A stretch of 55,702 bases of DNA, from contig MFCA01000002.1 of NCBI GenBank assembly GCA_001775095.1, forward strand, positions 1 through 55,702. Direction: 5' to 3'. Positions 1-48,500 of this stretch are shown here, in pieces (the first letter of the stretch is position 1; every line of letters begins with the position of its first letter). Source of the DNA: Candidatus Curtissbacteria bacterium RIFOXYA1_FULL_41_14. Lineage in GTDB: Bacteria; Patescibacteriota; Microgenomatia; Curtissbacterales; GWA2-41-24. Both the position numbers and the translations under genes were made by a program. Under the pieces are notes generated by a model that saw only the letters and a list, made by a program, of their open reading frames with translations, did no database searches and was not told the DNA's origin.

Positions 1-432
1 AGAACTCATGGCAAAAATCTTAAAATCAATATCGTCAAACCCAATCAAGGCTTTTTGATTGATAATGTAAAAGCCGAATATTTTCCGGTTATCCACGGAA
101 AAACCCCGACGTACGGGGTCAAAATAAAAGATAATAAGATTCTCGCTTATATCCCGGACCTAAACAGAATTTTACCCTCCAGTCAAAAAATCATCCGTGA
201 CTGCCACATCCTTATCATCGATGGTTCATCACTAAACCAGGTTGGCCAGGCAAGAGGTCATATCTCAATTGTCGATGGAATAAAACTCGCTAAAAACCTA
301 AAAGCCCGAAAAACTTACTTTGTCCATATTGGCCACAAAACTAGCACTCATCAACTTTTAGAAAAATATCTTGCCGAAAACGCCGGTCCAAATTTCCACA
401 TTGCCTATGACGGCTTAGAGCTGGAAATCTAA
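1..432 (+). CDS. MBL-fold metallo-hydrolase (PhnP-like), C-terminal part; 5' end outside window
   Basis: Frame 1 is open from base 1, so the TTG at 55 is probably internal. The tail ...YFVHIGHKTSTHQLL...HIAYDGLELEI resembles MBL-fold hydrolase C-termini. Confidence 0.45.
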   Translation, partial: RTHGKNLKINIVKPNQGFLIDNVKAEYFPVIHGKTPTYGVKIKDNKILAYIPDLNRILPSSQKIIRDCHILIIDGSSLNQVGQARGHISIVDGIKLAKNLKARKTYFVHIGHKTSTHQLLEKYLAENAGPNFHIAYDGLELEI

Positions 433-450
433 AGTGCTAAAATTAGATTA

Positions 451-1260
451 ATGCCCACCATTCGAAAAATCCTCATTGTACTTGCAGTTATTCTAATTTT
501 TCAATTTTCAATTTTCAATTTTCAATTTTCAATTGCTATCACTCCGCTTGACCAGGCACAAGAGGACTATACTTTTCAGTTCACTAAATACCGTGAAGAG
601 CAAAGTAAATATATCACCGCCCGTTCAAGCTATTTGACTTTTAATACTGCCGTTTCTAAAAGTGAAGCTTTCCTGGCAACAAAAGATTACCTTGGCCAAA
701 TTGATAATCTTTATACCTCCTATATTCTTCTGGTTAACGAACACGCCAACAGTCTAAACTGGACAAACAGCACCCTTCCTAAAGATCTTGTTAGTAAAAT
801 CGCGGGCGAGCAAACCTCCTATCTTAAAGATCATCAAGAAAAAGTCTCTCAATCAACAACTCTTGAAGAACTGCCAGTATTGGCTGCGGAATTGAAAAAA
901 TATGTCGATACCAATCTCGCTGAAAAAATCAATAAAACTTTGGCAATTCTCGAAATCGTTGAAACCGAGTCGGCACTTTCTGATTTTAACGAGCTAACCG
1001 CCATTCTAGACCAGGCAATGACTTCTAAAAATCAACCAGGCGCAAGTCAATCATTTTACGCCAACTGGACCTCCGAAATATCCGATATTCGGACTAAAGC
1101 GGAAGCTTTTAAAGATCAGGCCAAAGCTCAACTTGCCAAAACCGAGGAGGAGACCGCTTCAGAAAGGGAATTATCCTCCATTTCCTATTCCGCACAACAG
1201 GCTAAAAAAGAACTTCAGAGGTCAAAACCATTGTTTGAGGAGGTTATTAAGAGTCTATGA
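451..1260 (+). CDS. Secreted or membrane-anchored coiled-coil protein, function unknown
   Basis: N-terminal hydrophobic segment ILIVLAVILIFQFSIFNFQFSIA, then an Ala/Glu/Lys-rich sequence. Part of the signal region is encoded by a heptamer array. Confidence 0.55.
   Translation: MPTIRKILIVLAVILIFQFSIFNFQFSIAITPLDQAQEDYTFQFTKYREEQSKYITARSSYLTFNTAVSKSEAFLATKDYLGQIDNLYTSYILLVNEHANSLNWTNSTLPKDLVSKIAGEQTSYLKDHQEKVSQSTTLEELPVLAAELKKYVDTNLAEKINKTLAILEIVETESALSDFNELTAILDQAMTSKNQPGASQSFYANWTSEISDIRTKAEAFKDQAKAQLAKTEEETASERELSSISYSAQQAKKELQRSKPLFEEVIKSL
495..534. repeat. Heptanucleotide tandem array (aattttc, about 5.5 units) inside a CDS
   Basis: Read directly: aatttttc aattttc x4 aattg. Translated as FQFSIFNFQFS. 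Confidence 0.9.
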
Positions 1261-1677: not shown

Positions 1678-2277
1678 ATGAAACCATCACAAATAGTAAA
1701 AAATGTTGCGCAATCAGCTTTTGAGCCGTGGGAAACACTTAATTCGCAAATAACAAGGCCTATAATAGAGGAGACCGCTCGTGAGCTGGGATTTGGCGGA
1801 TCAAAGACATCAGGAGCAAAAAGAACAATTGCACAGGAAGAACTTCAACGAGCTAGAGAGAAGCGAAAGCTTGAAGAAGAAGATAGTCAAGATAAAGGGC
1901 AATCTTCTGAAAAAGCCAGCGCCTTAATTTCCCAAATTCAAAGTGAATATCAAATCTTTGAAGCAAGAACTAATAACCAGCAGGGCCCCAAAAAAGAATT
2001 TGTCGAACTTCAAGAAGAGATAGCTAAGCTTTCCAAGACAGCCGGAGTTGAAACAAAAGCTCATCTTGAGACAATTCCCAAAAAAGTAGGAGTTCTAGAT
2101 ATTAAGAGATTAACTTCAATTGTCAGATATTTAAGAATAAAGGTTGAGGAATCCAAAAGCGCAAAAGAGCTAGTTTCTCAAAGAGCCAATGCTAAACGAA
2201 CAACCGGTATGCTTGCCTGGGTTAGCGGCAAGCAAATGAAGGTCCACGAACAAGGCACACTCCAGCTTCAGGGGTAA
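1678..2277 (+). CDS. Hypothetical protein (charged, coiled-coil-like)
   Basis: ORF-track frame. The first ATG after the upstream stop (1664) is at 1678; the TTG at 1642 overlaps the previous gene. Confidence 0.45.
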   Translation: MKPSQIVKNVAQSAFEPWETLNSQITRPIIEETARELGFGGSKTSGAKRTIAQEELQRAREKRKLEEEDSQDKGQSSEKASALISQIQSEYQIFEARTNNQQGPKKEFVELQEEIAKLSKTAGVETKAHLETIPKKVGVLDIKRLTSIVRYLRIKVEESKSAKELVSQRANAKRTTGMLAWVSGKQMKVHEQGTLQLQG

Positions 2278-2311
2278 TTCTCAATTTTCAATTCTCAATT
2301 TTCAATTTCTA
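2277..2311. repeat. Heptanucleotide tandem array (attctca/attttca, 5 units)
   Basis: Read directly, immediately after the stop codon at 2275-2277. Confidence 0.9.
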
Positions 2312-2314
2312 CTG

Positions 2315-2388
2315 TGGGCTCAAGAGGACTCGAACCTCTGGCCTCCACGATGTCAACGTGACGCTCTAACCAACTGAGCTATGAGCCC
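2315..2388 (-). tRNA. tRNA-Val (anticodon GAC)
   Basis: The reverse complement folds as a 74-nt cloverleaf: GGGCTCA TA GCTC AGTTGGTTA GAGC G TCACG TTGACAT CGTGG AGGCC AGAGG TTCGAGT CCTCT TGAGCCC A. CCA is not encoded. Confidence 0.92.
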
Positions 2389-4903: not shown

Positions 4904-4905
4904 AA

Positions 4906-5130
4906 ATCCTAAACTCTAAATTCTAAATCCTAAATAAATCCAAATGAGGTAAAATACAAAATTCAAAACAGGAGGATAACTATATTGTTCGAGCCCTTCG
5001 TCGAAACTCAGGGCGAGAACTAAAACTTCTCACTTTGTTCGAAGACTAAAAGGGTTTTAACTGACTATCTTTCTTTTGAACATTTGAATTTTGAAATTGT
5101 TTAGAGTTTAGAATTTAGAATTTAGAATTT
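4906..5130. repeat. Composite nested palindrome: heptamer-type arms flanking a GC-richer core hairpin
   Basis: Left arm atcctaaactctaaattctaaatcc...caaaattcaaaaca. Right arm ttttgaacatttgaattttgaaattgtttagagtttagaatttagaatttagaattt. Core ttgttcgagccc...gggcgagaac recurs at 37925-38010 and 52862-52963. Confidence 0.8.
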
Positions 5131-6650: not shown

Positions 6651-6784
6651 GAAAATTCGAAATACGAAGCACGAAATTCGAAACAAATTCCAATTTTCAA
6701 AATACAAATGTTCAAGACGTTTTGAATTTAGGTCATTTGAATTTAAGTATTGTTTAGGATTTAGAATTTAGGATTTCGGATTTA
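6651..6784. repeat. Long imperfect palindrome (aaattcgaaa-type arms, centre acgtttt); same family as the carB insertions
   Basis: gaaaattcgaaatacgaagcacgaaattcgaaacaa...caagacgttttgaatttaggtcatttgaattta...ggatttagaatttaggatttcggattt. The 5' half is near-identical to 47299-47390. Confidence 0.85.
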
Positions 6785-13370: not shown

Positions 13371-13405
13371 ACTTTACACTTTACACTTTACACTTTACAC
13401 TTTAC
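13371..13405. repeat. Heptanucleotide tandem array (actttac x5) ending 5 nt before the recG ATG
   Basis: Five perfect units read directly. Confidence 0.95.
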
Positions 13406-16047: not shown

Positions 16048-16075
16048 TTGACACCAAGTTGGTTTCTGCTATAAT
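16048..16075 (+). promoter_or_regulatory. Near-consensus promoter TTGACA-16-(TGc)TATAAT
   Basis: Read directly. No ORF follows it for about 300 nt. Confidence 0.6.
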
Positions 16076-16082
16076 CCAACCG

Positions 16083-16226
16083 TATCGAAGAGTCAGAGAA
16101 TCAAAACCGTTTGACCCTCTGACTCCTTGACCCCGTTAGAAGTTTGTTTTTAAATCTATATTTCGAAAAGTCTCTTCGGAGATCTTTAAGTCTGTATAAG
16201 TTGAAATACCATACTTCTAACGGGGT
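16083..16226 (+). ncRNA. Candidate structured small RNA of unknown class
   Basis: Downstream of the strong promoter there is a 9-bp perfect hairpin (16090-98/16117-25). It is followed by a 95-nt hairpin with a 13-bp perfect basal stem (16131-43/16213-25) and a cUUCGg-capped apical stem. No ATG-initiated ORF. Confidence 0.35.
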
Positions 16227-16966: not shown

Positions 16967-17030
16967 GAGAGCTTGTTTTTCTCGCAAGCTCGAAAAATAA
17001 AAAGTTAACATTAGTTAACTTACATAATTT

Positions 17031-17064
17031 TGATTTTTGACTTTTAACTTATAACTTATCTTAT
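17031..17064. repeat. Heptamer array (tgatttt tgacttt taactta taactta) abutting the ATG at 17065
   Basis: Read directly. The same unit type occurs upstream of holB and gyrA. Confidence 0.8.
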
Positions 17065-20930: not shown

Positions 20931-20940
20931 ATATATTAGG

Positions 20941-20982
20941 GTCTAGTGTTTAGGGTTTAGAATACTAGTCTCTAGACACTAA
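20941..20982. repeat. CTAG-rich heptamer array (gtctagt gtttagg gtttaga atactag tctctag)
   Basis: Read directly, upstream of pilN on the minus strand. Confidence 0.6.
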
Positions 20983-22039: not shown

Positions 22040-22079
22040 ACAGCTTTTTAAAACAATCTAAAAAATTATTCCTGAAATT

Positions 22080-22143
22080 TATATCAGAGGAGCGCCCTGA
22101 GTCCTGAGCTTGTCGAAGGATCGAAGGGCGACCTGCTGATTTA
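22080..22143. repeat. Family A palindromic element with a GC-rich centre
   Basis: tatatcagaggagcgccctgagtcctgagcttgtcgaaggatcgaagggcgacctgctgattta. Its left end reads TGaTATAAA on the minus strand, facing pilM. Confidence 0.8.
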
Positions 22144-22189
22144 AACGACCTACCAATATCAAGACCAAAGACTTGGGCAGACATAATAT

Positions 22190-23310: not shown

Positions 23311-23331
23311 CTCTAATTCCAGTTTAGGTTT

Positions 23332-23371
23332 GTCAATTGTCAATTGTCAAATGTCAAATGTTAATTGTTAT
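23332..23371. repeat. Heptanucleotide array (gtcaatt x2, gtcaaat x2, gttaatt, gttattt)
   Basis: Read directly. Confidence 0.9.
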
Positions 23372-23983
23372 TTAATATTGCCTTAGCGAAATCGTCGTCT
23401 CAAACTTGACATTTGCCAAAAAATCCGCGCGTGAAGGAGCATCAATTCCTTGATTGACCATAAAGCTTATGGAAACAATAGGAGGCGACCCGGAGGCCGT
23501 AGGAATTATTTTAAATCCTAAAGGGGGAGTACACGTAATATCTACTCCCGAAATAGTATCTCTACTTGTAATTGATTCATAGTCACCCGTATTAATATCT
23601 GTTCCGGGAGAGACATCTGCTACACCAATCCACCCATTGCTGGAAGGCGACGCAATACTATTGAAACATGCTATATAGAGTGAGTTTCCATCTGTCTTAG
23701 TTATATTAACCCCGCTTGATGAACCATTTGGTGTAATTTCAACAGCTGCGGTTGCACCTCGAATTTGTTTCTCCAGCAAATCCAGAACTGCCTGGCCGTT
23801 TTGCTTAACCTCTGCAGTCACATTAGCCTGATTTGTACCTTTTAAAACATTGGTTAAGAATAAAAGAGTAGCTCCTACGGCCGTAACCAGTATGCCCAAA
23901 ACAACCAGCAGCTCGATCAGGGTGAAACCATCCGAAAATTGAAAATTGAAAATTGAAAATTGAAAATTTTTGCGGAAGGGCAT
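23372..23983 (-). CDS. Minor pilin (prepilin-type N-terminal cleavage/methylation domain; PilW/PulJ-like)
   Basis: ...DG|FTLIELLVVLGIL class III signal. The 19-aa leader MPFRKNFQFSIFNFQFSDG is encoded by a heptamer array. Confidence 0.8.
   Translation of the reverse strand: MPFRKNFQFSIFNFQFSDGFTLIELLVVLGILVTAVGATLLFLTNVLKGTNQANVTAEVKQNGQAVLDLLEKQIRGATAAVEITPNGSSSGVNITKTDGNSLYIACFNSIASPSSNGWIGVADVSPGTDINTGDYESITSRDTISGVDITCTPPLGFKIIPTASGSPPIVSISFMVNQGIDAPSRADFLANVKFETTISLRQY
23934..23968. repeat. Heptanucleotide array (gaaaatt x5) inside the minor-pilin leader coding region
   Basis: Five perfect units between the only in-frame ATG and the G|FTLIE site. Confidence 0.95.
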
Positions 23984-24082
23984 TACTTCAATTGTCTCGA
24001 GAAGTCAGCACATTGTCAATTGCTTGCCCGCCGTAGCTTTAGCGAAGGCGGGCCTGCTCGCCGAAGTCCGGCAAAGCAACTG

Positions 24083-24589
24083 TTAATCATTGCTGGAAAG
24101 AATAGTCTGATTAATGACCGATTGGGTACCTCCAGAATCAGTCCATGAGACAGTAACTGTAACCTTTTTCTGATCGGAATTCGCTCCAATCTCGATCTTT
24201 AAAGATCGATCAAAAACAACTTGATTTAAAAGTACCGACTCGGGACAGTCAACAGAAGGATCTGATGAATTATTTGCCAGTTTCCAATTATTTGGATTAA
24301 TATCGGCAGTATTAGCAAGCACCCAGCAGTCGTTATTTGCCAAACTAGCAAAACCCTGCCTGTCGCGCAAAATTCTAACTTGCTCAATATTTTGCTGAAC
24401 CAATTTTGTAGCCTGGGAAGTATTTTTAGCGGTCCTTGATGCTCTTTGGACAACCAAAGTCGTAGTTACCAAAGCCACTGCCAAACCGACAATCACAGCC
24501 ATGGCGATAACAACCTCAATAAGCGACTGCGCTGACTTACTGACAACTGACAACGGACAACTGACAACTGACTTATGGCTTGCTTTCAT
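24083..24589 (-). CDS. Minor pilin (PilV-like)
   Basis: ...KSA|QSLIEVVIAMAVIVGLAV has Glu at +5. The ATG at 24589 overlaps the upstream gene end. Confidence 0.7.
   Translation of the reverse strand: MKASHKSVVSCPLSVVSKSAQSLIEVVIAMAVIVGLAVALVTTTLVVQRASRTAKNTSQATKLVQQNIEQVRILRDRQGFASLANNDCWVLANTADINPNNWKLANNSSDPSVDCPESVLLNQVVFDRSLKIEIGANSDQKKVTVTVSWTDSGGTQSVINQTILSSND
24533..24575. repeat. Heptanucleotide array (tgacaac-type, 6 units) in the minor-pilin leader coding region
   Basis: tgactta c tgacaac tgacaac ggacaac tgacaac tgactta, translated as HKSVVSCPLSVVSKS. Confidence 0.9.
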
Positions 24590-25346
24590 CCACTTCCCCT
24601 GAAGTCTGAATCTTAACATTATAGGTTTTAGAGGAATCAGATACTAAAATCAAACTTATCGTTAACTGACTTTGCGGAGTAAGTAAATTTTTTAGATTAT
24701 CACTAGTATCGATAAATGGGGGAGCCACATCGTTGTGGAAACTAACACCTGCTGCCACAGACCGATAGAAAATAGTCACGTCATTAACGGAAGAACTAAG
24801 TATACTAATTCCTCCTATCTTCACGTCTCTTGGTAGATTTACCGTTTTTGAGCCAACTGTGTAACTCTCTGTTCTACTAGGATCGTCCTGACAATAACCG
24901 GCCAACAAATATGATTGGGCATCTTGGCTAATTTTAATAAACCACCCGTCAAGAATTAGGTCATCTCTTTCAGGATTACTCTCACATTTACCGCCCGTGC
25001 CCTTATCACCGGATACTGCCTTGTTTTGAATTAAGCGAATGTCGCCTTTTAGCATTTGCGCGGCACTTTTGAGCCGCTGGTTACGTTCAAAAGACAGATA
25101 AGACGCGGTTATGGCTGAAACCGCAATACCAAAAACCGTAATCACAATCATAAACTCAATTAACCCAAAACCATGACGCCTACGGCGCCAGTTGATAGTT
25201 GACCCTTCGATGTACTCAGGGTCACCTCTTCGAGCCTGAGCCTCAGAGCCGAAGGCCTGAGCTTGCCGAATGGGTGATAGTTCATAGTTGACAGTTTTCT
25301 TATTTACGCAGACCGTGAACCGAGAACCATGAACCGTGAACCTCAT
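24573..25346 (-). CDS. Minor pilin (GspH/FimT-like); start uncertain
   Basis: RRRRHG|FGLIEFMIVITVFGIAVSAI...NQRLKSAAQML. The annotated 60-aa leader is made entirely of repeat sequence. Confidence 0.7.
   Translation of the reverse strand: MRFTVHGSRFTVCVNKKTVNYELSPIRQAQAFGSEAQARRGDPEYIEGSTINWRRRRHGFGLIEFMIVITVFGIAVSAITASYLSFERNQRLKSAAQMLKGDIRLIQNKAVSGDKGTGGKCESNPERDDLILDGWFIKISQDAQSYLLAGYCQDDPSRTESYTVGSKTVNLPRDVKIGGISILSSSVNDVTIFYRSVAAGVSFHNDVAPPFIDTSDNLKNLLTPQSQLTISLILVSDSSKTYNVKIQTSGEVDESKP
25191..25341. repeat. Composite element: GC-rich core (25201-25275) within gatagtt-type heptamers, plus an inverted cgtgaac array
   Basis: gttgatagtt-[gacccttcga...ctcagggtc...cctgagcctcagagccgaaggcctgagc...]-gatagttcatagttgacagtt ... 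cgtgaac cgagaac catgaac cgtgaac. Confidence 0.8.
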
Positions 25347-25350
25347 ATAC

Positions 25351-26118
25351 TCAATATAACATTAAATACCACTCAATAATCGGCTTTGCCCAGAAAAGGG
25401 CAGTTAAAAATCCCAGAGCCAGAAATGGAGCGAAGGGGATAGTCTGGCCAAAACTTTTTTTTCCACAAATTATCAAAAGGAGTGAAGCAACAGCACCAAT
25501 TAAAAATGCCAAGAATATTGCTAAAATTGCACCTTTTACACCCAAAACCATACCAATTAAGAAACCAAGTACGATATCTCCTTCGCCCATCCCCCGGCCA
25601 CGAGTCGCCAGAACTATTATTAGAAAAAAAAGACTAGCGGCAAACGCCGCTAACACATGCTCAAAAAAAAGCCCGGAAGATAAGTAAAAGTAATTATAAA
25701 AGAGTGAAATAAGAGAGGCAGCAAATACCAACGTAGTCGGAATAAGCGAGAATTTTTGATCCACAACAGCTACCACCAGAAAAGTCGATACAAGGAAAAA
25801 GTAGTAGAGAAGAGCAGCAACGGAAAGCTGGCCGCTTTGAACCAATACAAGGAAAGAAGAAACAAAAAGCAAAGCAATTATCGTCTCAACCAGCGGATAT
25901 TGCCAAGAGAGGGATTTTTTACAATAGCGGCATCTGGCGCCAAGGGTAATGAAACTTAAAATCGGCACAAGGTCAAACGTTCTCAAAGTCGCTTTGCAGT
26001 AATCGCAATAAGACCGACCCAAAATCGTCTCTCCCCGAGTTGTTCTGTCAATAACCACATTCAAAAAACTGCCAACAGCAGAACCTAAAATGAAAGTAAT
26101 AAGAAGCCAAAAAAACAT
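25351..26118 (-). CDS. pilD: Prepilin peptidase (A24 family)
   Basis: N-terminal Cys pairs CDYC...CRYC. Polytopic, with the catalytic-Asp context GMGEGD. Confidence 0.9.
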   Translation of the reverse strand: MFFWLLITFILGSAVGSFLNVVIDRTTRGETILGRSYCDYCKATLRTFDLVPILSFITLGARCRYCKKSLSWQYPLVETIIALLFVSSFLVLVQSGQLSVAALLYYFFLVSTFLVVAVVDQKFSLIPTTLVFAASLISLFYNYFYLSSGLFFEHVLAAFAASLFFLIIVLATRGRGMGEGDIVLGFLIGMVLGVKGAILAIFLAFLIGAVASLLLIICGKKSFGQTIPFAPFLALGFLTALFWAKPIIEWYLMLY

Positions 26119-26131
26119 CTACTCTCAAGAA

Positions 26132-26662
26132 TTAAGGCTGACAATTACCACTGCCAACCTCGCCTATACTAACGCTTTCCGATCGCCAGCACCAAACCCA
26201 ATTCCCGCTGCCGGAAGTCGGGTCTTCAATTTCGCCATAAACTGCTGCTTCTGATGAAATACCCGAACCTGAAACCAAATACTGATACTCTGTTCCTATA
26301 GGATCAAGAGGTATTATTTTTAAATCTCCTGAAGCCCTTAGCGCTGTTAAACCGCTAACAGAAGCTGGGCCGGCCGGTGAGGGATAAGCGTCATAAGTTG
26401 TGTAATATGCCTTCAGGGCATTGGCAATTTGACCGATATCGTTTTTCCTGGCGGCATCCCGAGCTTGAGATTTACGTTTAACAGGGTTGATGGCAACCAT
26501 AATTGTTGCGGCCAGAACAGCCATAATAGCAATCACAATCAGAAGCTCGATCAGGGTAAAACCATGCCGCCATGAACGGCGGTTAACAGTTGTCGGTTCA
26601 TGGTTCACAGTCTTTTGAATTCTGTGAACTATTAACTGTAAACCGTTAACTAACTTGGGCAT
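26132..26662 (-). CDS. Type IV pilin paralogue 1 (start uncertain)
   Basis: RHG|[19 protein letters not shown]-terminus has the [16 protein letters not shown]...GSGNCQP disulfide loop shared by all three pilins. Confidence 0.85.
26582..26650. repeat. Hairpin with gttcac/gttaac heptamer-type arms in the pilin 5' region
   Basis: gttcacag-tcttttgaattc-ctgtgaac is an 8-bp perfect stem, flanked by gttaac-type repeats. Confidence 0.7.
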
Positions 26663-26702
26663 TACTTTTAGACTACCCTAAAAATTAAACTCTGTAAAGT
26701 GA

Positions 26703-27239
26703 TTATGGAGTACAACTACCTGAAGTAATCTCTTGGACTTTGCCAATTGCCGATTGCCAACACCAAAGCCAATCACCATCACCCGAAGTCGGGTCTTCAA
26801 GCGTAGCATACAGCGCCGCTTCACTATTTGCGGGAGCGCCGCCAAGAGTCAAACAATAATCATCACCGGTAGGTCCGGTTGGTACTTCTTTTAAATCACC
26901 ACTTGTAGTTAGAGCAGTTAAGCCTCCGCTGGTCCCGCAGCCGTCCGGCGTAGGATAATAACCATTTCCGCGGCTGACATAATAAGCATCCAGAGCGTGG
27001 GCTAGGGTTCCGATATTAGTTTTTCGAGAAGAATCCCGTGCTTGCCTTTGTCTTTTGGCGGGATTAACCGCCACTAGAACTGCTGCGGCCAGAATACCTA
27101 GAATACCAATAACTACCAGAAGTTCGATCAGTGTAAAACCATGCCGCCAACGGCGGCAGTTCACGGTTTTGAGTTCACTGTTCACGGACTTTTGTTTTCT
27201 GTAAGCTATGAACTGTGAACTATGAACTAGATTGGGCAT
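26703..27239 (-). CDS. Type IV pilin paralogue 2 (start uncertain: ATG 27239 or GTG 27164)
   Basis: RHG|FTLIELLVVIGILGILAA. C-terminus EDPTSGDGDWLWCWQS...TSGSCTP. Confidence 0.85.
   Translation of the reverse strand: MPNLVHSSQFIAYRKQKSVNSELKTVNCRRWRHGFTLIELLVVIGILGILAAAVLVAVNPAKRQRQARDSSRKTNIGTLAHALDAYYVSRGNGYYPTPDGCGTSGGLTALTTSGDLKEVPTGPTGDDYCLTLGGAPANSEAALYATLEDPTSGDGDWLWCWQSAIGKVQEITSGSCTP
27159..27230. repeat. Hairpin whose arms are inverted heptamer arrays (agttcay / rtgaacn) in the pilin 5' region
   Basis: Minus strand reads agttcat agttcac agttcat agcttac agaaaac aaaagtc cgtgaac agtgaac tcaaaac cgtgaac. Confidence 0.8.
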
Positions 27240-27243
27240 TACT

Positions 27244-27303
27244 TCAATTGTCAATTGTCAATTGTCAATTGTCAATTGTCAGTAGTCAGCAGTCAGTAGT
27301 AGT
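27244..27303. repeat. Longest heptanucleotide array: tcaattg x5 then tcagtag/tcagcag x3
   Basis: Read directly, in the divergent gap between the pilin and the 27316 gene. Confidence 0.95.
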
Positions 27304-27315
27304 ATATTAATTATC

Positions 27316-32965: not shown

Positions 32966-33424
32966 TTATGGTGTACAATCTCCACTTGACACTTCTGTAG
33001 CTTTACCAGAAACAGATCGCCAACACCATTCATAAGTACCTGTACTCGCCGTAGTAGGATCTTCCAGTGCATCATAGATTGCAGCCTCGCTTGAATCGCT
33101 TGCAACCGTATACGAATATTGACCACTTGTTGGATCAGTTGGAATTGACTTCAGATCCTGAGTTGTTGTTAATGCTACCAAACCTCCCGGTGCACCGCTT
33201 GTGCCAAGATAGTAACCTAGACCTGGTGTTGTGTAATAGGCTTGCAGTGCTGTTGCCATTTGTCCGATGTCGTTTTTGCGGGCAGCATCACGAGCCTGCC
33301 TTTGTCTCTTAGCCGGATTTACAGCTACTAGAACTGCCGCGGCCAAAATCCCTAAAATTGCAATAACAATAAGAAGCTCAATTAAGGTAAAACCAAATAA
33401 TTTCTTGCGGGCAGAAATAACCAT
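32966..33424 (-). CDS. Type IV pilin, likely the major pilin (short canonical leader, strong SD)
   Basis: GAGGAGGTG SD. MVISARKKLFG|[22 protein letters not shown]-terminal WCWRS...SSGDCTP. Confidence 0.9.
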   Translation of the reverse strand: MVISARKKLFGFTLIELLIVIAILGILAAAVLVAVNPAKRQRQARDAARKNDIGQMATALQAYYTTPGLGYYLGTSGAPGGLVALTTTQDLKSIPTDPTSGQYSYTVASDSSEAAIYDALEDPTTASTGTYEWCWRSVSGKATEVSSGDCTP

Positions 33425-34831: not shown

Positions 34832-34839
34832 ATTTTCAG

Positions 34840-34867
34840 TGTCTAGTTGCTAGTGGCTAGTGACTAG
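34840..34867. repeat. Heptamer array tgNctag x4 immediately upstream of pilC, overlapping the pilT stop
   Basis: tgtctag ttgctag tggctag tgactag. Confidence 0.85.
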
Positions 34868-37890: not shown

Positions 37891-38047
37891 TTCAAAATTC
37901 AAAAGGCAAAAGTCAAAATTATGGTAAGTTCTCGATCCTTCGATGAACTCAGAACTCGAACAATAACATATTCTTCGAGTGAGTCAGCGAAGTGACGAAT
38001 CGAGAAGTTTCCTTACTTTTGACTTCTAACTTATAACTTTTAACTTA
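37891..38047. repeat. Composite nested palindrome: inverted heptamer arms (ttcaaaa.../...ttataac ttttaac) around a GC-richer core
   Basis: The core gttctcgatccttcgatgaactcagaactcgaacaata...ttcttcgagtgag is homologous to 4985-5046 and 52862-52963. The right arm abuts the holB ATG. Confidence 0.8.
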
Positions 38048-38055
38048 TTTAAACT

Positions 38056-38836: not shown

Positions 38837-40845
<2,009 letters not shown>

Positions 40846-41382: not shown

Positions 41383-41453
41383 AAATGATCTTTTCGTCCA
41401 AAGTTATCGAAGAACTAAAATAAAAGCTAATGCAATTAGCTTCCATAACTTGT

Positions 41454-41488
41454 GACTTTTAACTTATAACTTATAACTTTTAACTTAA
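41454..41488. repeat. Heptamer array (gactttt aacttat aacttat aactttt aacttaa) ending 5 nt before the gyrA ATG
   Basis: Read directly. Confidence 0.9.
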
Positions 41489-44237: not shown

Positions 44238-44312
44238 ATATCAGAGGAGCGCCATTGGCAGGACGAGTCGAGTCTGACTCGACGAAGTCTGCCAAGACGA
44301 CCTGCTGATATA
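44237..44312. repeat. Family A palindromic element (most complete copy)
   Basis: tatatcagaggagcgccattggcaggacgagtcgagtctgactcgacgaagtctgccaagacgacctgctgatata. The right end is TGaTATAAA, 6 nt before an ATG at 44321. Confidence 0.9.
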
Positions 44313-44343: not shown

Positions 44344-45558
44344 ATGCAAAATAAAAAAGCAAGATTAATTCTCGAAGACGGCACCATCTTTAAAGGTAAT
44401 GCAGCCGGCAGTCAGACCTCTTCAGCAGGCGAAGTAGTTTTTGCAACAGGCATGGTCGGTTATGATTTATCGCTTACCGACCCTTCTTACGCCGGCCAGA
44501 TATTAACCTTCACATACCCTTTAATCGGTAATTGGGGTGTACCGCCAAAAGAGTTTTGGGAATCGGATAAAATCCAAGTTGCTGGTCTTGTAGTCAGCGA
44601 CTTAACTACAAAACCCAGCCATTGGCAATCGCAACAAACTCTTGATGAATGGCTGAAAGAAGAAGGAGTCTCTGCAATTTTTGGTATAGATACAAGACTC
44701 TTGACCCAAAAATTACGAGATAGGGGAGTAATGCTGGGTAAAATTGTAGTTGAGGATCAGGATATCGAATTTTATGATCCGAATGCCGAAAATCTTGTCG
44801 CCAAAGTTTCGCCGAAAGAACCAAAAATCCTCAAATCCGAAATCCGAAATCCGAAATCCGAAATCCGGGTCGGCCTATTAAATTGTGGAGCGAAAAGAAA
44901 TATCCTGCGCAGTCTTCTTGCTCGAGGAGTAACCGTTTATGATCTCCCATGGAATTTCGATCCGTTCGTTTCGGACGGGTGGCAGTCGTGGAAAGGTTCC
45001 CGACAGCGCGGACCCCGCACTTTTACAAATTCTGATCAAAATCACAAATATCAAACCAACCTAAAAGTGCGGGGGAGCACTGACGGGAAGGAAACGACTG
45101 ACAGGACCCGTCCGGAATTCCCCAAACTTGACGGCCTGGTCATTTCCAATGGTCCGGGAGACCCTAAAATGGCCAAAGAGACCATCAATATTATCAAAAA
45201 AGCTTTAAAAAAGAAGATCCCAACATTCGGAATATGTCTTGGCAACCAGCTTCTGGCTTTAGCGACCGGGGGAGATACTTACAAATTAAAATTCGGCCAT
45301 CGGGCACAAAATCAACCGACTATTCAAGCCGGAACCAAACGCTGCTACATCACCACTCAAAATCATGGCTTTGCGGTCGACGAGAAAAAAATGCCAAAAG
45401 GCTTTAAGAGATGGTTTCATAATGCTAACGATAATACTAATGAGGGAATAATCCATGAGAATCTCTCATTTTTTTCCGTCCAATTCCATCCGGAAGCCAG
45501 TCCCGGGCCAACAGATACCGAATGGCTCTTTGATTACTTTTTGGAGAAATTTAAATGA
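44344..45558 (+). CDS. carA: Carbamoyl-phosphate synthase small (glutaminase) subunit, carrying two in-frame repeat insertions
   Basis: ARLILEDGTIFKG, GAKRNILR, SNGPGDP, GICLGNQLL, VQFHPEA. Confidence 0.95.
   Translation: MQNKKARLILEDGTIFKGNAAGSQTSSAGEVVFATGMVGYDLSLTDPSYAGQILTFTYPLIGNWGVPPKEFWESDKIQVAGLVVSDLTTKPSHWQSQQTLDEWLKEEGVSAIFGIDTRLLTQKLRDRGVMLGKIVVEDQDIEFYDPNAENLVAKVSPKEPKILKSEIRNPKSEIRVGLLNCGAKRNILRSLLARGVTVYDLPWNFDPFVSDGWQSWKGSRQRGPRTFTNSDQNHKYQTNLKVRGSTDGKETTDRTRPEFPKLDGLVISNGPGDPKMAKETINIIKKALKKKIPTFGICLGNQLLALATGGDTYKLKFGHRAQNQPTIQAGTKRCYITTQNHGFAVDEKKMPKGFKRWFHNANDNTNEGIIHENLSFFSVQFHPEASPGPTDTEWLFDYFLEKFK
44833..44867. repeat. Heptanucleotide array (aaatccg x5) in frame inside carA
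   Basis: Five perfect units plus a degenerate unit at 44825-32. Translated as LKSEIRNPKSEIR. Confidence 0.95.
44971..45116. repeat. GC-rich ~146-nt imperfect palindrome in frame inside carA
   Basis: The left arm tcggacgggtggcagtcgtggaaaggttcccgacagcgcggaccccgcacttttac pairs with the right arm ctaaaagtgcgggggagcactgacgggaaggaaacgactgacaggacccgtccgga. Confidence 0.9.
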
Positions 45559-48500
45559 GAAAAATCCTTCTTCTTGGATCCGGAGCTTTAAAAATCGGCC
45601 AAGCCGGCGAGTTTGATTATTCCGGATCGCAGGCAATTAAAGCTCTTAAGGAGGAAGAAATTAAGGTAATTTTAATTAACCCAAATATCGCCACAGTCCA
45701 AACATCCGAAGGCTTCGCAGACCAAGTCTATTTCTTACCTGTTGAAACACACTTCGTCAAAGAAATCATCAAGAAAGAAAGACCCGAAGGTATTATTCTT
45801 TCGTTTGGAGGACAAACCGCCTTAAATTGCGCTCTGGAACTTGCAAAATTAAGAATACTAGAAAAATATCGAGTTAAAGTTCTAGGGACCCAAATAGACA
45901 CAATTGAAAAAACCGAGGATAGGGAACTTTTCAATGAAACTTTGAGAAAAATTGGTCTGTCAATTCCAAAAAGTGTTGCGTGTAAAAGTTTAAGCCAGGC
46001 GGAAATTGCTATCGGCAAAATCGGTTATCCTGTTATCGCGCGATGCGGTTTTTCTTTAGGAGGTCAGGATTCACAAGTCATTTTCAATAATACTCAGCTG
46101 AAAGAAGCTGTCATCAGGGCTCTTTCCAAATCTCCACAAGTTCTAATTGAAGAATACTTAGAAGGCTGGAAAGAAGTGGAGTACGATGTAGTCAGAGACA
46201 AGTATGACAACTGTATTACTGTCTGCAACATGGAAAATGTCGATCCGATGGGTATTCACACCGGCGAATCAATCGTTGTCGCTCCTTCGCAAACTCTGAA
46301 TAATTTTGAATATCATAAGCTTCGGGAAATCGCCATCAAAGTGATCCGTCACCTAAAAATAGTCGGGGAGTGCAATATTCAGTTTGCTCTAAACCCCCGT
46401 CCGACAAACTCTAAATCCGAAATCCTAAATTCTAAACAATCTCAAAATCCAAATGACCTAAATTCAAAACGTTTTGAGCATTTGAATTTAGAAAATTCGG
46501 ATTTGTTTAGAAATTCGGATTTAGAAATTAGAAATTACCTCGATTATAGAATTATCGAGGTTAACGCTCGTCTTTCTCGAAGTTCTGCCCTGGCTTCGAA
46601 AGCAACCGGTTATCCATTGGCTTATATAGCAGCCAAATTGGCACTCGGATATTCGCTGACCGAACTTAAAAATACCGTTACAAAAAAAACCATAGCCTGC
46701 TTTGAACCTGCCCTCGATTATCTGGTTGTCAAAATTCCACGCTGGGATCTGGGTAAATTTCTAAAAAGCGAAACGCAAATCGGACCCTCTATGCAATCTG
46801 TGGGAGAAGTAATGGCAGTAGGACGCAAATTCGAAGAAGCAATTCAGAAAGCAATCCGCATGCTTGATATCGGACTCGAAGGTATTTTGGACAAACGCGC
46901 CCCAATCTCCAAGTATCAAAAACCCACCCCCTGGCGAATTTTCTCCGTGGCAAAAAGTCTGGCGGCCGGAGAGGCTGTCGACAAAATTTACAAGGCAACC
47001 GGCATCGACCCATTTTTTCTGGAAAAGATCAAAAACATAGTAGAGTTTGAAAAAAATATTAAAGCCTGTGATACTCGTGATACTCTTACTACCCGTGATA
47101 CTCTTCTTTTAGCCAAGCAACTTGGATTCTCTGATAAACGATTGGCAAAACTTACAAATTCAGCTGAGGAAAAGATTAGGAAACTGCGAAAAAAATATGG
47201 CATCTATCCGAAAGTCAAGCAAATTGACACTCTAGCTGCCGAATACCCGGCCCAGACGAATTACCTCTACCTTACATACAATGGAGAATCGGATGATATA
47301 AATTCGAAATCCAAAGCACGAAATTCGAAACAATATCAAATTTCAAATAACAAAAATTTTAAACGTTTTGAACATTTGAATTTAGAGAATTCGGATTCGT
47401 TTAGAAATTCGAAATACGAGAGCGTATTTTCGGAAAACCGAAAAGTGGAAATTAGAAATTCCCAAAACGATCGCAAGGTGATCGTTTTGGGATCTGGTCC
47501 TTACCGCATTGGGTCTTCCGTTGAATTTGACTGGTGCTCGGTAACATGCACCCAGACCGCTTCAAAAAATAACCTCTCCACAATAATTGTAAACTGCAAC
47601 CCGGAAACAGTCTCTACTGATTACGACATGGCCGACAGGCTTTATTTCGAAGAACTCTCTTTGGAAACTGTTCTGGAAATTTACGAAAGGGAGAAACCCT
47701 TTGGAATAATTCTCTCGATGGGTGGCCAAACTCCCAATAACCTGGCTACAAGTCTTTCTAAAAACGGAGTCAACATTCTGGGTACTAAATCAACTTCTAT
47801 CGATCAGGCAGAAGATCGAAATAAATTCTCAAACCTTTGCGATAAACTGTCAATAGACCAACCGGTCTGGGCTAAATTAAAAAATCTAAAAGAAGCTCTC
47901 ACTTTTGCCGAAAAAATCGGCTATCCGGTTCTAATCAGACCTTCCTACGTTCTTTCCGGAGCAGCTATGAACGTCGCATTCAGTTCTGAAGATCTCGCGA
48001 TATATCTTAAGTTAGCCTCCCGTATCTCTAAGGAATATCCTGTTGTGATCTCAAAATATTACGAGGAGGCTAAAGAGATCGAAATTGACGCAGTTGCGCA
48101 AGAAGGCCAGATTCTATGTTCTGCGATTTCCGAGCACGTTGAAAATGCCGGAGTCCACTCGGGAGACTCAACCATGGTTTTACCTGCTCAAAAACTCTAC
48201 CTCAAAACGGTTACTCAAATCGAAAATATCGCCCAAGAAATTGCCAAAAATTTAAAAATTACGGGCCCTTTTAACATCCAATTTTTGGCAAAAAATAATC
48301 ACGTCATGGTGATTGAATGCAATCTGCGCGCATCCCGAAGTTTTCCGTTTGTTTCCAAAGTAACCGGAGTCAACTTCATAGAGGTTGCAACAAATGCAAT
48401 CCTTAACATTAACCAAATACCAAATACTAAATACCAGATACTAGACTATGTCGGCGTCAAAGCTCCCCAGTTTTCTTTTTCCCGTATTAAAGGTGCTGAT

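Follow-up and report, generated by a model that had tools for sequence, protein, structure and literature searches.

Heptamer tandem repeats are a genome-wide class of element in the Candidatus Curtissbacteria (CPR/Microgenomates) groundwater genome studied here, and they are not specific to pilins, as they also stand before and inside housekeeping genes. With moderate confidence, we propose that this lineage-wide repeat class gives the pilin genes of a type IV pilus cluster long cleaved leaders, which would be read from leaderless mRNAs and carry hairpins acting in cis. The cluster lies in the window, by which we mean the whole 55,702-nucleotide stretch analyzed, and the coordinates of its features are collected in Table 1.

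Heptamer repeats across the window and the genome

We counted perfect tandem arrays of at least three copies in the window and took the expectation from dinucleotide shuffles of it. Period 7 was the sole enriched period, with seven such arrays against 0.03 expected, and the same census found none for periods 5, 6 and 8-12. Altogether, 36 period-7 arrays are spread over the whole window, outside the pilin genes too; 19 of them lie within non-coding DNA, which makes up 11% of the window, and ten end 2-8 nt upstream of a start codon (P about 3e-7). Their length is narrowly distributed (mode about 4.3-5.6 units), several families occur (AATTTTC, AAATCCK, TTGACAA, TAACTTA, GTTCACR and others), identical unit families recur at many, unrelated loci, and hairpin-forming pairs of inverted arrays are common. 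K-mers of (GAAAATT)n occur at about 100 times the depth of the flanking sequence, and Curtissbacteria loci carry 1-16 arrays per 10 kb versus about 0-1 in the non-CPR loci.

The genome-wide spread, the in-frame insertions in carA and carB, and the unit families shared by unrelated loci would suit a reading that we consider possible, if doubtful: purely neutral or selfish repeats, arising by replication slippage and template switching or from a mobile palindromic element, and tolerated with no function in pilin expression. A Y1 (IS200/RAYT-type) transposase adjoining a minor pilin in the related locus L052 points the same way. However, the precise array ends and the narrow array length argue against it, as does the TTGACAA array upstream of the pilX-like gene, which is conserved in L001 with the same unit at the orthologous position. 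The exact placement 2-8 nt before housekeeping starts suggests some function beyond even our best explanation.

Table 1. Positions of leaders, repeat arrays, promoter-like signals and pilus genes in the window.
Feature	Position	Strand	Remarks
(TTTTCAA)5.3 in signal peptide of secreted protein 451-1260	498..534	+	TGcTAAAAT ends 7 nt before ATG
(TTTAGAA)4.4	5100..5130	+	ends 8 nt before rplT ATG; housekeeping-gene example
Array before pheT	6753-6784		
Array before recG	13371-13405		
Array	17028-17059		another of the housekeeping-gene arrays
Array at pilN	20936-20960		
(TTGACAA)-type array upstream of PilX-like gene	23330..23373	-	gene ATG at 23310
Minor pilin (23372-23983) leader	23927..23983	-	19 aa, MPFRKNFQFSIFNFQFSDG/FTLIE; only in-frame start ATG 23983
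Promoter-like TTGACA-17-GACAAT, minor pilin	23991..24019	-	-10 hexamer ends 7 nt before ATG 23983
PilV-like minor pilin (24083-24589) leader	24530..24589	-	20 aa, MKASHKSVVSCPLSVVSKSA/QSLIE; A at -1
FimT-like gene (24573-25346) leader	25170..25346	-	59 aa
Prepilin peptidase PilD	25351..26118	-	A24_N_bact and Peptidase_A24 domains
Pilin A (26132-26662) leader	26561..26662	-	34 aa
Pilin B (26703-27239) leader	27138..27239	-	34 aa
(TGACAAT)5 and TGACTRC units	27244..27304	-	directly upstream of pilin B ATG; doubles as promoter-like signal
Pilin C	32966..33424	-	canonical control; 11-aa leader; strong Shine-Dalgarno GGAGGTGA
Array at pilC	34838-34867		
Array before holB-like gene	38022-38048		
Array before gyrA	41445-41487		
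(AAATCCG)5 inside carA	44833..44867	+	in frame; encodes KSEIRNPKSEIR
Inverted heptamer arrays in carB	46404..46537	+	hairpin, z = -5.45; ~46-aa in-frame insertion

Repeat-encoded leaders of the pilus cluster

Among the class III signal peptides of type IV prepilins are the longer leaders of type IVb pilins, of about 15-30 aa. The leaders of the cluster resemble them in having G or A at -1, a hydrophobic residue at +1, E at +5 and an N_methyl domain, with PilD adjacent; unlike the usual ones, they are 19-59 aa long and repeat-encoded, and their length and nucleic-acid structure are conserved while their sequence is not. Pilin C, whose short leader and Shine-Dalgarno sequence were re-found as originally described, has neither an array nor a hairpin in its leader.

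Direct arrays build two of the leaders. The minor pilin had been described as having a single in-frame start separated from the cleavage site by five perfect units, and both points were verified: (AATTTTC)5 at 23934-23968 encodes NFQFSIFNFQFS and is unstructured as RNA (folding z = +1.6). The six-unit array noted in the PilV-like gene corresponds to a GTCAGTT array at 24539-24572 with ~5 units, or six once the degenerate ends are counted. Orthologues of this gene have leaders of 7-14 aa, so the array appears to be an in-frame insertion of about 39 nt peculiar to this lineage; leader insertions are sporadic among these orthologues, in keeping with neutral repeats. The array reported within the signal peptide of the secreted protein is likewise present, and it belongs to the same AATTTTC family as that of the minor pilin. 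The coding arrays of these surface and secreted proteins lie 4-47 nt past the start codon.

The other three leaders, of the FimT-like gene, pilin A and pilin B, carry inverted GTTCAxx/xxTGAAC heptamer arms, and the hairpins noted in them were verified in both arms and folding. In pilin A, hairpin 1 has arms at 26622-26650 and 26582-26610 (GTTxAxx/xxTxAAC heptamers), followed by a GC junction hairpin, CCGCC..GGCGG, at 26567-26582; in pilin B, hairpin 1 spans about 27158-27228 and the junction hairpin TGCCGCC-GTT-GGCGGCA lies at 27142-27158. RNA folding z-scores are -3.8 and -3.5 for the leader regions of pilins A and B, and -2.1 and -2.3 for two overlapping segments of the FimT-like leader. The latter combines a 34-aa leader of the hairpin type (5' arm 25312-25342, 3' arm about 25273-25296) with a junction hairpin at 25174-25190 and an in-frame insertion of 75 nt at about 25199-25270 that forms a GC-rich hairpin; in L029, an in-frame 30-nt deletion removes 25226-25255. 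The 3' arm begins at nt 53 in all three paralogues.

Start sites and translation of the leaders

The array-borne TTGACA-17-GACAAT-7-ATG upstream of pilin B (27247-27275) has the same layout as the promoter-like signal of the minor pilin. Across the window, 10 of 51 genes have a -10-like hexamer at exactly 7 nt before the start codon, the distance at which such hexamers peak. Of 17 pilin-like genes surveyed in 8 loci, 12 have TAnnnT or GACAAT ending 7 nt before ATGCC[CT]. This exact spacing before ATGCCC suggests that the pilin mRNAs are leaderless, with the 5' end at the upstream ATG. The leader frames contain no stops versus 1-6 in the other frames, with the exception of the stop-free AATTTTC array. 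Because a stop-free heptamer is open in all three frames, the open frame across the direct arrays of the minor pilin and PilV-like gene is weak evidence. In the hairpin leaders, in-frame TGA has been lost solely in the repeat unit where it would be in frame, in all four xxTGAAC arms.

We also considered a reading in which the arrays and hairpins stay untranslated as 5' leaders and initiation just upstream of the cleavage site, at GTG or the non-canonical GTT or ATC, yields a short MNxRRxWRHG leader, with the hairpins serving as 5'-UTR regulators. The motif (V/I)NxRRx(W/R)RHG is kept in the three paralogues, arrays elsewhere in the genome normally end just before starts, and pilin B has a GTG at -9, a start that one GenBank record annotates. 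The codons originally read nine positions before G/F (GTT, GTG and ATC in pilin A, pilin B and the FimT-like gene) were confirmed; however, GTT is not a start codon, ATG, GTG and TTG are absent near the cleavage site in most of the orthologues and leader genes examined, and the minor pilin and PilV-like gene contain no in-frame start downstream. The selective avoidance of in-frame stops throughout the hairpins, the promoter-like signals that put the 5' end at the upstream ATG, and a GC-rich DNA palindrome, CGCC..GGCG, that accounts for the conserved peptide make such untranslated leaders highly improbable. The long leaders are very probably translated, as judged from these signals, the lack of usable downstream starts in most genes, the selective TGA avoidance, and the leader length and frame kept in orthologues.

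Conservation of the leader design among relatives

Leaders of related Curtissbacteria pilins are mostly 11-12 aa, and about a quarter of the related major pilins have assorted leader insertions, which would fit neutral repeats. Those of minor-pilin orthologues have a mode of 32-34 aa and mostly an MP start, and the 34-aa leader is retained in frame in the L033 orthologue (76% identity). The 32-34-aa mode and the ATGCCC start are kept in many species even though the arm sequences have turned over completely, which argues against neutral repeats. Among 12 examined leaders of 29-35 aa, 10 have hairpin z-scores of -2 to -4.65, with differing heptamer units. In several species, the junction hairpin pairs the G-F-T codons with an upstream complement (GGATTTAC/GTAAATCC, GGCTTCAC/GTGAAGC), and it changes on both sides, Phe codon TTT versus TTC being matched by AAA versus GAA; this covariation with synonymous codons also speaks against neutrality. 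Some of the arm substitutions that distinguish the window from L033 disrupt base pairs, and overall they resemble concerted evolution of the units within an arm more than compensation, as neutral repeats would have it.

Across Curtissbacteria, the leader sequence turns over, with compensatory changes, but the two-hairpin design persists, a hint that it acts in cis as RNA or DNA. The alternative offered in the original prediction, that the hairpins act as regulators, is viable and gains support from this structural conservation across species. However, the design also occurs in carB, where a regulatory role is unlikely, and the apparent conservation could reflect repeat origin, not selection.

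Two observations bear on whether the leader/mature junctions are DNA-level recombination hot spots at which paralogues swap leader or pilin cassettes and so diversify. P0136 matches the minor pilin at 95% identity in the aligned portion (52% of the query) yet has a pilin-B-type leader of 34 aa, and the L041 contig switches locus exactly at a heptamer array; the leader architecture common to the three paralogues, down to the start of the 3' arm, could be read likewise. However, both P0136 and L041 may be chimeras that were misassembled through conserved or repeated sequence, no silent cassettes were seen, and the cluster contains no recombinase, which leaves cassette swapping decidedly unlikely.

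Unit-number stability and phase variation

The original prediction interpreted the arrays as classical contingency loci, in which slipped-strand mispairing would shift the frame and switch the pilins and the secreted protein ON or OFF, with the upstream array tuning the promoter. The unit length is not divisible by 3, the perfect arrays lie shortly after the starts of surface or secreted proteins, and L002 contains a leaderless 11-codon remnant, MPLRKNIQFSI*, before a pilin with a short leader. There are heptanucleotide precedents in neuO, with (AAGACTC)n in its 5' coding region (3-53 repeats over 64 genomes, 20 being commonest, 66% of the genomes OFF, and minority lengths detectable within a culture; PMC13001214), and in hmw1A/hmw2A, with (ATCTTTC)n between promoters (13-24-repeat promoter constructs; PMC8262952). 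The window resembles these in having a 7-nt unit in the 5' coding region or promoter of surface-related genes and, as in neuO, a full-length protein only with a unit number in the correct frame. Unlike those long, hypervariable tracts, its tracts reach ~6 units at most, and the same arrays also stand before or within essential housekeeping genes. Every coding array is in the ON frame, and no unit-number change was found among the compared independent assemblies and cluster members, a comparison of consensus assemblies and k=31 contigs that is blind to minority length variants. SNPs in neighboring DNA between the same assemblies mean that different strains are sampled. The only unit-number polymorphism, a difference of one unit between assemblies, is in the non-coding array upstream of pilin B, with both alleles apparently present in run X18; since this array is periodic, both alleles keep TTGACA-17-GACAAT. 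Moreover, the hairpin-type leaders are imperfect arrays, which are unfriendly to slippage. Slippage can thus occur, as the pilin B array indicates, but it is probably not the operating principle, and contingency loci are an unlikely account; the part of the original interpretation that is supported is that of atypically long, repeat-encoded leaders.

Comparison with known repeat systems

Cyanobacterial STRR heptanucleotide repeats (Mazel et al. 1990) reportedly comprise several tandem heptamer families, intergenic and within one lineage. Compared by description only, the window arrays are alike in their several scattered intergenic families and differ in unit sequence; to our knowledge, STRR repeats are neither leader-coding nor hairpin-forming. 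Rickettsia palindromic elements (Ogata et al. 2000) are said to be homologous elements, about 100-150 bp long and grouped in families, found in frame in protein-coding genes and presumably translated. The carB and 75-nt FimT-like insertions are similarly tolerated in-frame palindromes; unlike those elements, the window arms are simple heptamer arrays with differing units, for which no shared consensus was established.

TAACTGA direct repeats occur in marine Beggiatoaceae, some Cyanobacteria and Bacteroidetes (MacGregor 2015, PMC4679880), where the 7-nt units form tandems of 2-6 copies that are mostly intergenic, end a few nt from start codons at the Shine-Dalgarno position (Shine-Dalgarno sequences being rare there), precede essential genes including ribosomal protein genes, and are sometimes in frame at the protein periphery; 'long simple sequence repeats' were described by Mrazek et al. 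2007, as summarized in PMC4679880. The window arrays likewise form tandems of few units, are mostly intergenic, end near starts at the place of a Shine-Dalgarno sequence, in regions where such sequences are rare, precede essential genes including one for a ribosomal protein, and are now and then in frame at the edge of proteins. In contrast to that single heptamer, they comprise several families with frequent inverted, hairpin-forming pairs, are inserted in frame mid-enzyme and systematically used in prepilin leaders, and reside in a CPR bacterium; our literature search found no report of such heptamer repeats in CPR.

Proposed explanation

In the explanation we favor, heptamer repeats (direct arrays of ~3-6 units, or two inverted arrays making a hairpin) would build up in this genome and its relatives, in intergenic DNA, typically 2-8 nt before starts, and in frame where extra residues are tolerated. 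Prepilin leaders and signal peptides would be such positions because they are cleaved off, which would explain why five of the cluster's six pilin-like genes have the repeats as part of the ORF. From the sequence, we infer leaderless initiation, translation and cleavage of the leaders, and cis action of the hairpins, as follows. Transcription would start at the A of the conserved ATGCCC, behind a -10-like hexamer that ends 7 nt before it; a TTGACAA-type array often makes up the -35 and spacer region. Ribosomes reading through the array or hairpin would produce class III leaders of 19-59 aa, which PilD would cut at G/A followed by F/Q-x-x-x-E. The hairpins, which start ~12 nt after the AUG and also span the cleavage-site codons, may act in cis on the mRNA, and their most likely effect would be to hold down initiation or early elongation in the accessory pilins compared with the canonical, Shine-Dalgarno-driven pilin C.

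The pilus locus encodes predicted long, repeat-built pilin leaders

The 55.7-kb window (40% GC) derives from a groundwater population of Candidatus Curtissbacteria (CPR/Microgenomates), and identical copies of the region are present in groundwater metagenome assemblies in NCBI, JGI and ENA. Pfam assignments place a type IV pilus cluster on its minus strand, with PilO, PilN, PilM, PilX-like, minor pilin, PilV-like, FimT-like, PilD, pilin A and pilin B, followed by three glycosyltransferase-like membrane proteins, then pilin C, PilC and two T2SSE-family ATPases, which we label PilT and PilB. Type IV pili are believed to play a central part in host attachment and DNA uptake by ultrasmall CPR bacteria. 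PilD, whose nearest relatives are in Curtissbacteria MAGs (65-70% identity), has A24_N_bact and Peptidase_A24 domains, so the locus has a dedicated prepilin peptidase; assembly genes are also present. The class III prepilin motif (G/A at -1, hydrophobic helix, E at +5) is seen as G↓FTLIE, A↓QSLIE and G↓FGLIE, and PF07963 (N_methyl) matches pilin A, pilin B and the FimT-like protein. Pilin homologues were abundant in searches, and public records disagree on the annotation of these pilin genes.

Curtissbacteria major-pilin homologues mostly have an 11-12-aa leader (MIxxAxKKxFxG↓FTLIELL), with a longer one in about a quarter. Pilin C has the short basic leader (5-12 aa) of type IVa pilins and most of these homologues, while the other five leaders of the cluster are 19, 20, 34, 34 and 59 aa long. 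The original prediction described the sequence of these leaders correctly. ATG 23983 is the sole in-frame start of the minor pilin and gives the 19-aa leader MPFRKNFQFSIFNFQFSDG↓FTLIE, 12 residues of which are encoded by a perfect heptamer array; the PilV-like leader, from ATG 24589, is MKASHKSVVSCPLSVVSKSA↓QSLIE, again with heptamer units, and the signal peptide of the secreted protein at the left end of the window carries a further array. Inverted heptamer arms (5' GTTCAxx, 3' xxTGAAC; folding z = -3.8 for pilin A, -3.5 for pilin B, and -2.1 and -2.3 in two overlapping FimT-like segments) are a feature of pilin A, pilin B and the FimT-like gene, which carry GTT, GTG and ATC, respectively, nine codons before the cleavage site. 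The 11-aa leader of pilin C is preceded by a Shine-Dalgarno sequence, GGAGGTGA. The 59-aa FimT-like leader combines the 34-aa hairpin design with an in-frame, GC-rich 75-nt hairpin element, and one assembled copy of the window (L029) has an additional in-frame 30-nt deletion there. The peptide (V/I)NxRRx(W/R)RHG, conserved before the cleavage site, is explained by a GC-rich junction palindrome, CGCC..GGCG, and does not point to a short leader. An example of a predicted leader-derived peptide is NFQFSIFNFQFSDG.

Table. Positions of the features discussed (window coordinates unless another contig is named)
Feature	Position	Strand	Remark
Secreted-protein gene	451-1260	+	
Array in its signal peptide	498-534		(TTTTCAA)5.3
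Array at convergent junction	2276-2308		(AATTYTC)4.7
tRNA-Val	2314-2388	-	
Complementary arrays, first pair	4904-4945; 5099-5130		
Complementary arrays, second pair	6653-6683; 6753-6784		
Type IV pilus cluster	~19.6 to 37.8 kb	-	
Minor pilin	23372-23983	-	
Array in minor pilin leader	23934-23968		(AATTTTC)5
PilV-like	24083-24589	-	
Array in PilV-like	24539-24572		~5 GTCAGTT units; CAACTGA on + strand
FimT-like	24573-25346	-	
PilD	25351-26118	-	
Pilin A	26132-26662	-	
Pilin B	26703-27239	-	
Promoter-like region with array	27244-27304		
Pilin C	32966-33424	-	
TAACTTA units	38022; 41445		
carA array	44833-44867	+	(AAATCCG)5
carA second insertion	~44962-45123	+	~54 aa
Inverted repeat in second insertion	45013-45025 / 45062-45074		perfect, 13 bp
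carB inverted array pair	46404-46537	+	z = -5.45
Start codons with -10-like hexamer exactly 7 nt upstream	451, 1678, 5625, 8870, 12049, 23983, 27239, 27316, 53948, 54238		several hexamers extended (TGnTAnAAT); Shine-Dalgarno absent at the ten starts
Short GC-rich hairpins	16075-16140, 22040-22180, 24010-24075, 25199-25270, 37950-38010, 38837-38920, 44255-44295		
Sequence lacking from L053	~406-497		92 nt
Sequence lacking from L038	46656-46777		122 nt
End of match to L041	44864		
Y1_Tnp gene in contig L052	1857-2534		
Region with mini-ORF in contig L002	9330-9470		

The long leaders are probably translated from leaderless-type starts

Promoter-like sequences stand at a fixed distance from the upstream ATGs. 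For the minor pilin and pilin B alike, the order is a perfect TTGACA, 17 nt of spacer, GACAAT, 7 nt and ATGCCC; direct reading of the upstream sequence gives TTTACA-17-TAGTCT-7-ATGCCC for pilin A, and the secreted-protein gene has TGcTAAAAT-7-ATG. In the window as a whole, -10-like hexamers show a sharp peak at exactly 7 nt upstream of start codons (10 of 51 genes vs ~2 per position), and 12 of 17 pilin-like genes from eight Curtissbacteria loci have a TAnnnT or GACAAT hexamer whose end lies 7 nt from ATGCC(C/T). We take this 7-nt peak to be the signature of leaderless mRNAs, and by this measure they may be produced by at least a fifth of the genes in this CPR genome. Array sequence frequently occupies the -35 and spacer stretch 5' of the -10 hexamer, and the TTGACAA-type array upstream of the pilX-like gene is conserved in another locus (L001). 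Array-supplied -10 hexamers hold for TTGACAA-type arrays (pilin B, and the L051 and L052 orthologues), for RecG and perhaps for GyrA; as a general source of leaderless -10 elements, start-proximal arrays fail at rplT, pheT, pilN and pilC. Metatranscriptomes searched for the locus gave no match.

The coding potential of the leaders bears on whether they are untranslated, with initiation at non-canonical starts further downstream. ATG, GTG or TTG near the cleavage site is absent in most hairpin-type leaders, and each of these leaders has no in-frame stop, vs one to six in every other frame. The 3' arms consist of xxTGAAC units that shift frame by one per unit, and begin at nt 53 in the three window genes (pilin A, pilin B and FimT-like) as well as in L033, the orthologue of pilin A. 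In all four arms, TGA has been lost precisely in the sole unit that reads it as a codon (to ACA, AAA, TCA and ATA), vs 7 of 11 out-of-phase units that retain it. The L033 orthologue (76% identity) keeps the 34-aa leader in frame, and the leaders of 120 minor-pilin homologues mostly start with MP, with a length mode of 32-34 aa. Together, the promoter-like signals at the upstream ATG, the stop-free frames, the selective loss of TGA and the conservation in orthologues argue that the leaders are very probably translated, and it is the atypically long, repeat-encoded leader, one of two readings originally proposed, that they support; the other, phase variation, is not supported by the assemblies compared.

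In another contig, L002, TATATT-7-ATGCCCCTCCGCAAAAATATTCAATTTTCAATTTGA forms a leaderless-type 11-codon mini-ORF that matches the 5' end of the window's minor pilin gene almost exactly at the DNA level and lies ~90 nt upstream of a pilin with its own 14-aa leader. Long- and short-leader forms may be interconvertible.

Two hairpins recur in Curtissbacteria leaders

Folding of leader DNA covered pilin-like genes at ten loci. An inverted-heptamer hairpin (hairpin 1) was found in 10 of 12 leaders of 29-35 aa (z = -2.06 to -4.65), with units that vary by species (GTTCACA, TAGTTGG/CTACCCA, GTATTAA/ATACAAA, AAATAGT/CCATTTA, GTTCACG/CTGTCAA), and no structure was found in short leaders or direct-array leaders. 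A second, short stem at the boundary between leader and mature protein (the junction hairpin; folding energy -4.4 to -14.7 kcal/mol) is present in 13 of the 15 long leaders. Its stem, in several species, joins the G-F-T codons to a complement further upstream (GGATTTAC/GTAAATCC, GGCTTCAC/GTGAAGC, GGCTTTAC/GTAAAG), and the choice of TTT or TTC for the Phe codon is mirrored by AAA or GAA, a two-sided compensatory change. Rfam gave tRNA-Val as the sole match in the window and none for the leader hairpins. We also considered the junction hairpin as a terminator, as a GC stem is followed by GGUUUUAC, yet this U-tract is the G-F-T codons themselves, and other species show no U-tract after the stem.

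The evidence on a conserved cis-acting RNA structure, as against the rival explanation of purely neutral repeats, points both ways. The compensatory change in the junction hairpin would speak for such a structure; for hairpin 1, the window and L033 differ by both pair-restoring and pair-breaking changes, its units look homogenised within an arm, and the resemblance of hairpins inside carB to the leader hairpins counts against selection on it.

In L052, a related contig, a transposase gene of the Y1_Tnp family (PF01797, IS200/IS605 or RAYT-type) directly adjoins a minor pilin whose leader is of the hairpin type; the transposase is a candidate for mobilising palindromic repeats. A partial homologous protein, P0136, is 95% identical to the minor pilin (aligned part, 52% of the query) and has a pilin-B-like 34-aa leader; a leader swap in nature or a chimera made in assembly would account for it.

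Heptamer arrays are genome-wide and enter conserved enzymes

Tandem Repeats Finder returned ~36 period-7 rows in the window, with a maximum of 6.1 units. Seven perfect arrays of at least three copies have period 7 (vs 0.03 in dinucleotide shuffles), and the window contains none at periods 5, 6 or 8-12. Nineteen of the 36 are intergenic, though non-coding DNA makes up 11% of the window, and ten terminate 2-8 nt 5' of a start codon (random-placement P ~3e-7), namely those of rplT, pheT, recG, an ACP-like gene, a KH-domain gene, pilN, pilC, a holB-like gene, gyrA and pilin B, usually where a Shine-Dalgarno sequence is absent. The recurring unit families are AATTTTC, AAATCCK/AAATTCT, TTGACAA, TAACTTA, GTTCACR and GTCAGTW. 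In the source metagenomes, the k-mer depth of (GAAAATT)n is ~100-fold above that of flanking DNA, and the arrays are therefore present at many loci or genomes of the community. In the other loci compared, period-7 arrays number 1-16 per 10 kb in Curtissbacteria, up to ~3 in other CPR lineages and ~0-1 in clearly non-CPR loci. The arrays are thus genome-wide and not specific to pilins. A role for start-upstream arrays as unstructured ribosome landing pads was rejected (mean z -0.56 vs -0.29 without arrays, P = 0.84).

Other placements were also seen. One array occupies the gap from the stop codon of gene 1678-2277 to the tRNA-Val 3' end, a convergent junction with no start codon close by. Arrays of complementary units (AAATCCT vs TTTAGAA/TTTAGGA), spaced 100-160 nt, flank the rpmI-rplT and pheS-pheT intergenic regions and could pair over long range. 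Metatranscriptome contigs from three RNA runs of the same aquifer (X23-X25) contain (ACTGACA)n with GC-rich flanks unlike this genome, so a heptamer array is transcribed in other community members. A second repeat class, set against the AT-rich background of the genome, consists of short GC-rich hairpins, many of them with loops of GCGAAG or TTCG type; a CTGATATAA (extended -10-like) motif frequently lies beside them, and one hairpin is in frame in the FimT-like leader.

Both carA and carB, genes of essential enzymes, contain in-frame repeat insertions. The carA array lies in frame, and the carB open reading frame is intact across an inverted array pair, an insertion of ~46 aa relative to human CPS1 and E. 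coli CarB. Rickettsia palindromic elements are palindromic insertions found in frame in proteins, and the carB palindromic repeat, in frame within a conserved protein, resembles them. A second insertion in carA contains an inverted repeat. Contig k141_245824 (L041) matches the window up to a point within the carA array and continues into a ribosomal-protein operon from rplC onward; the cause is either a false join across a shared array or a genuine rearrangement.

Coding arrays do not vary in unit number among assembled copies

Heptamer arrays in the 5' coding regions of the minor pilin, the PilV-like gene and the secreted-protein gene, and another in the promoter-like region of pilin B, are what a contingency locus would present, and one-unit slippage had been predicted to switch these surface proteins ON or OFF. 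We compared the window with 17 independently assembled copies (L026-L032, L037-L046) among the contigs listed, 24 contigs being read per look-up; identical-context places were collapsed, and the test is at consensus level. The 20 DNA runs with the locus are k=31 Logan contigs that break at 35-bp arrays, where unit counts are unreadable. The copies differ by SNPs, so different strains were sampled, and among ~25 arrays compared across them no change in unit number was found except in the array upstream of the pilin B ATG. This array has nine units in two assemblies vs eight in the window (nine-unit allele: TGACTGC, TGACTAC, three TGACAAT, two TGACTAC, TGACAAT, TGAAGTA), and contigs of both forms were found in one run; the periodicity of the array lets both alleles keep TTGACA-17-GACAAT. 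Metagenome contigs were also scanned with a variable gap across the minor pilin array, a test of low power, which gave two further copies, both with five units, and no member of the 90%-identity clusters had a differing unit count. Shorter cluster members, considered as OFF-phase alleles, are contig-edge fragments or alternative start calls.

The repeats are also not restricted to surface genes, being found at rplT, pheT, recG, holB, gyrA, carA and carB. Tract lengths differ as well from those of experimentally established switches: neuO has 3-53 repeats across 64 genomes (commonest 20), with 66% OFF and minority lengths within a culture (PMC13001214), and hmw promoter work used constructs of 13-24 repeats (PMC8262952). 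With coding arrays invariant across assemblies at the consensus level, at most 6.1 units long and also at housekeeping genes, the contingency-locus reading is unsupported at this level, which does not resolve minority length variants.

Larger segments are missing from two GenBank assemblies of this population, both from 2015: L038 lacks sequence within carB, where the gene is split, and L053 at the start of the secreted-protein gene, where the missing stretch ends in a four-unit array. Both deletions are probably local assembly errors.

Discussion

The closest described phenomenon is the TAACTGA heptamers of marine Beggiatoaceae, cyanobacteria and Bacteroidetes, which occur in 2-6 copies directly 5' of start codons, without Shine-Dalgarno sequences, precede essential genes among others and have no known function (PMC4679880); the same paper summarises an observation by Mrazek that heptanucleotides dominate long SSRs in some prokaryotes. 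Shared with our window are tandem 7-nt units that are enriched, mostly intergenic and start-proximal, usually with no Shine-Dalgarno sequence. The window differs in having several unit families and no dominant TAACTGA, the nearest units being CAACTGA and TAACTTA, and adds inverted pairs, which are frequent, insertions placed in frame within conserved enzymes, a systematic presence in the leaders of prepilins and a CPR host. Our literature searches found no description of such arrays in CPR or Patescibacteria.

We propose that the arrays represent a lineage-specific heptanucleotide repeat class. Slippage, template switching or some mobile or binding factor would generate the units and keep them alike, and the arrays would be retained at translation starts and at insertion-tolerant protein positions. 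In pilin genes they would become part of unusually long class III leaders, translated from leaderless AUGs and then removed by PilD. The two-hairpin design, beginning ~12 nt past the AUG and also covering the cleavage-site codons, would most plausibly act in cis on the mRNA, holding back the accessory pilins, at initiation or early in elongation, in comparison with the Shine-Dalgarno-driven pilin C.

Taken jointly, the heptamer-array modules of Curtissbacteria could be evolvable cis-regulatory blocks and a new type IV pilin leader architecture in CPR, a tentative reading that we consider rather unlikely as a whole. Under it, TTGACAA-type arrays would make slippage-robust promoters, because 3 × 7 + 2 = 23 gives every TTGACA a -10-like GACAAT exactly 17 nt further on. 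The accessory pilins would have leaderless mRNAs, and within the translated leader of 32-34 aa there would be a conserved module of two hairpins, one arising from inverted arrays and the other sequestering the cleavage-site codons. The module would control pilin stoichiometry, or serve as a recombination or processing site; recombination hot spots are also a rival explanation in their own right, and an unlikely one.

These results caution that a non-triplet repeat in a surface gene need not mean a contingency locus. If the long repeat-built leaders are real, gene callers and annotators would mis-start or split many CPR pilins. Repeats that sit at starts and are tolerated in carA and carB would offer a tractable case of the heptamer-at-start-codon phenomenon of Beggiatoaceae and cyanobacteria, and class III leader peptides would be far longer and more plastic than the textbook form.
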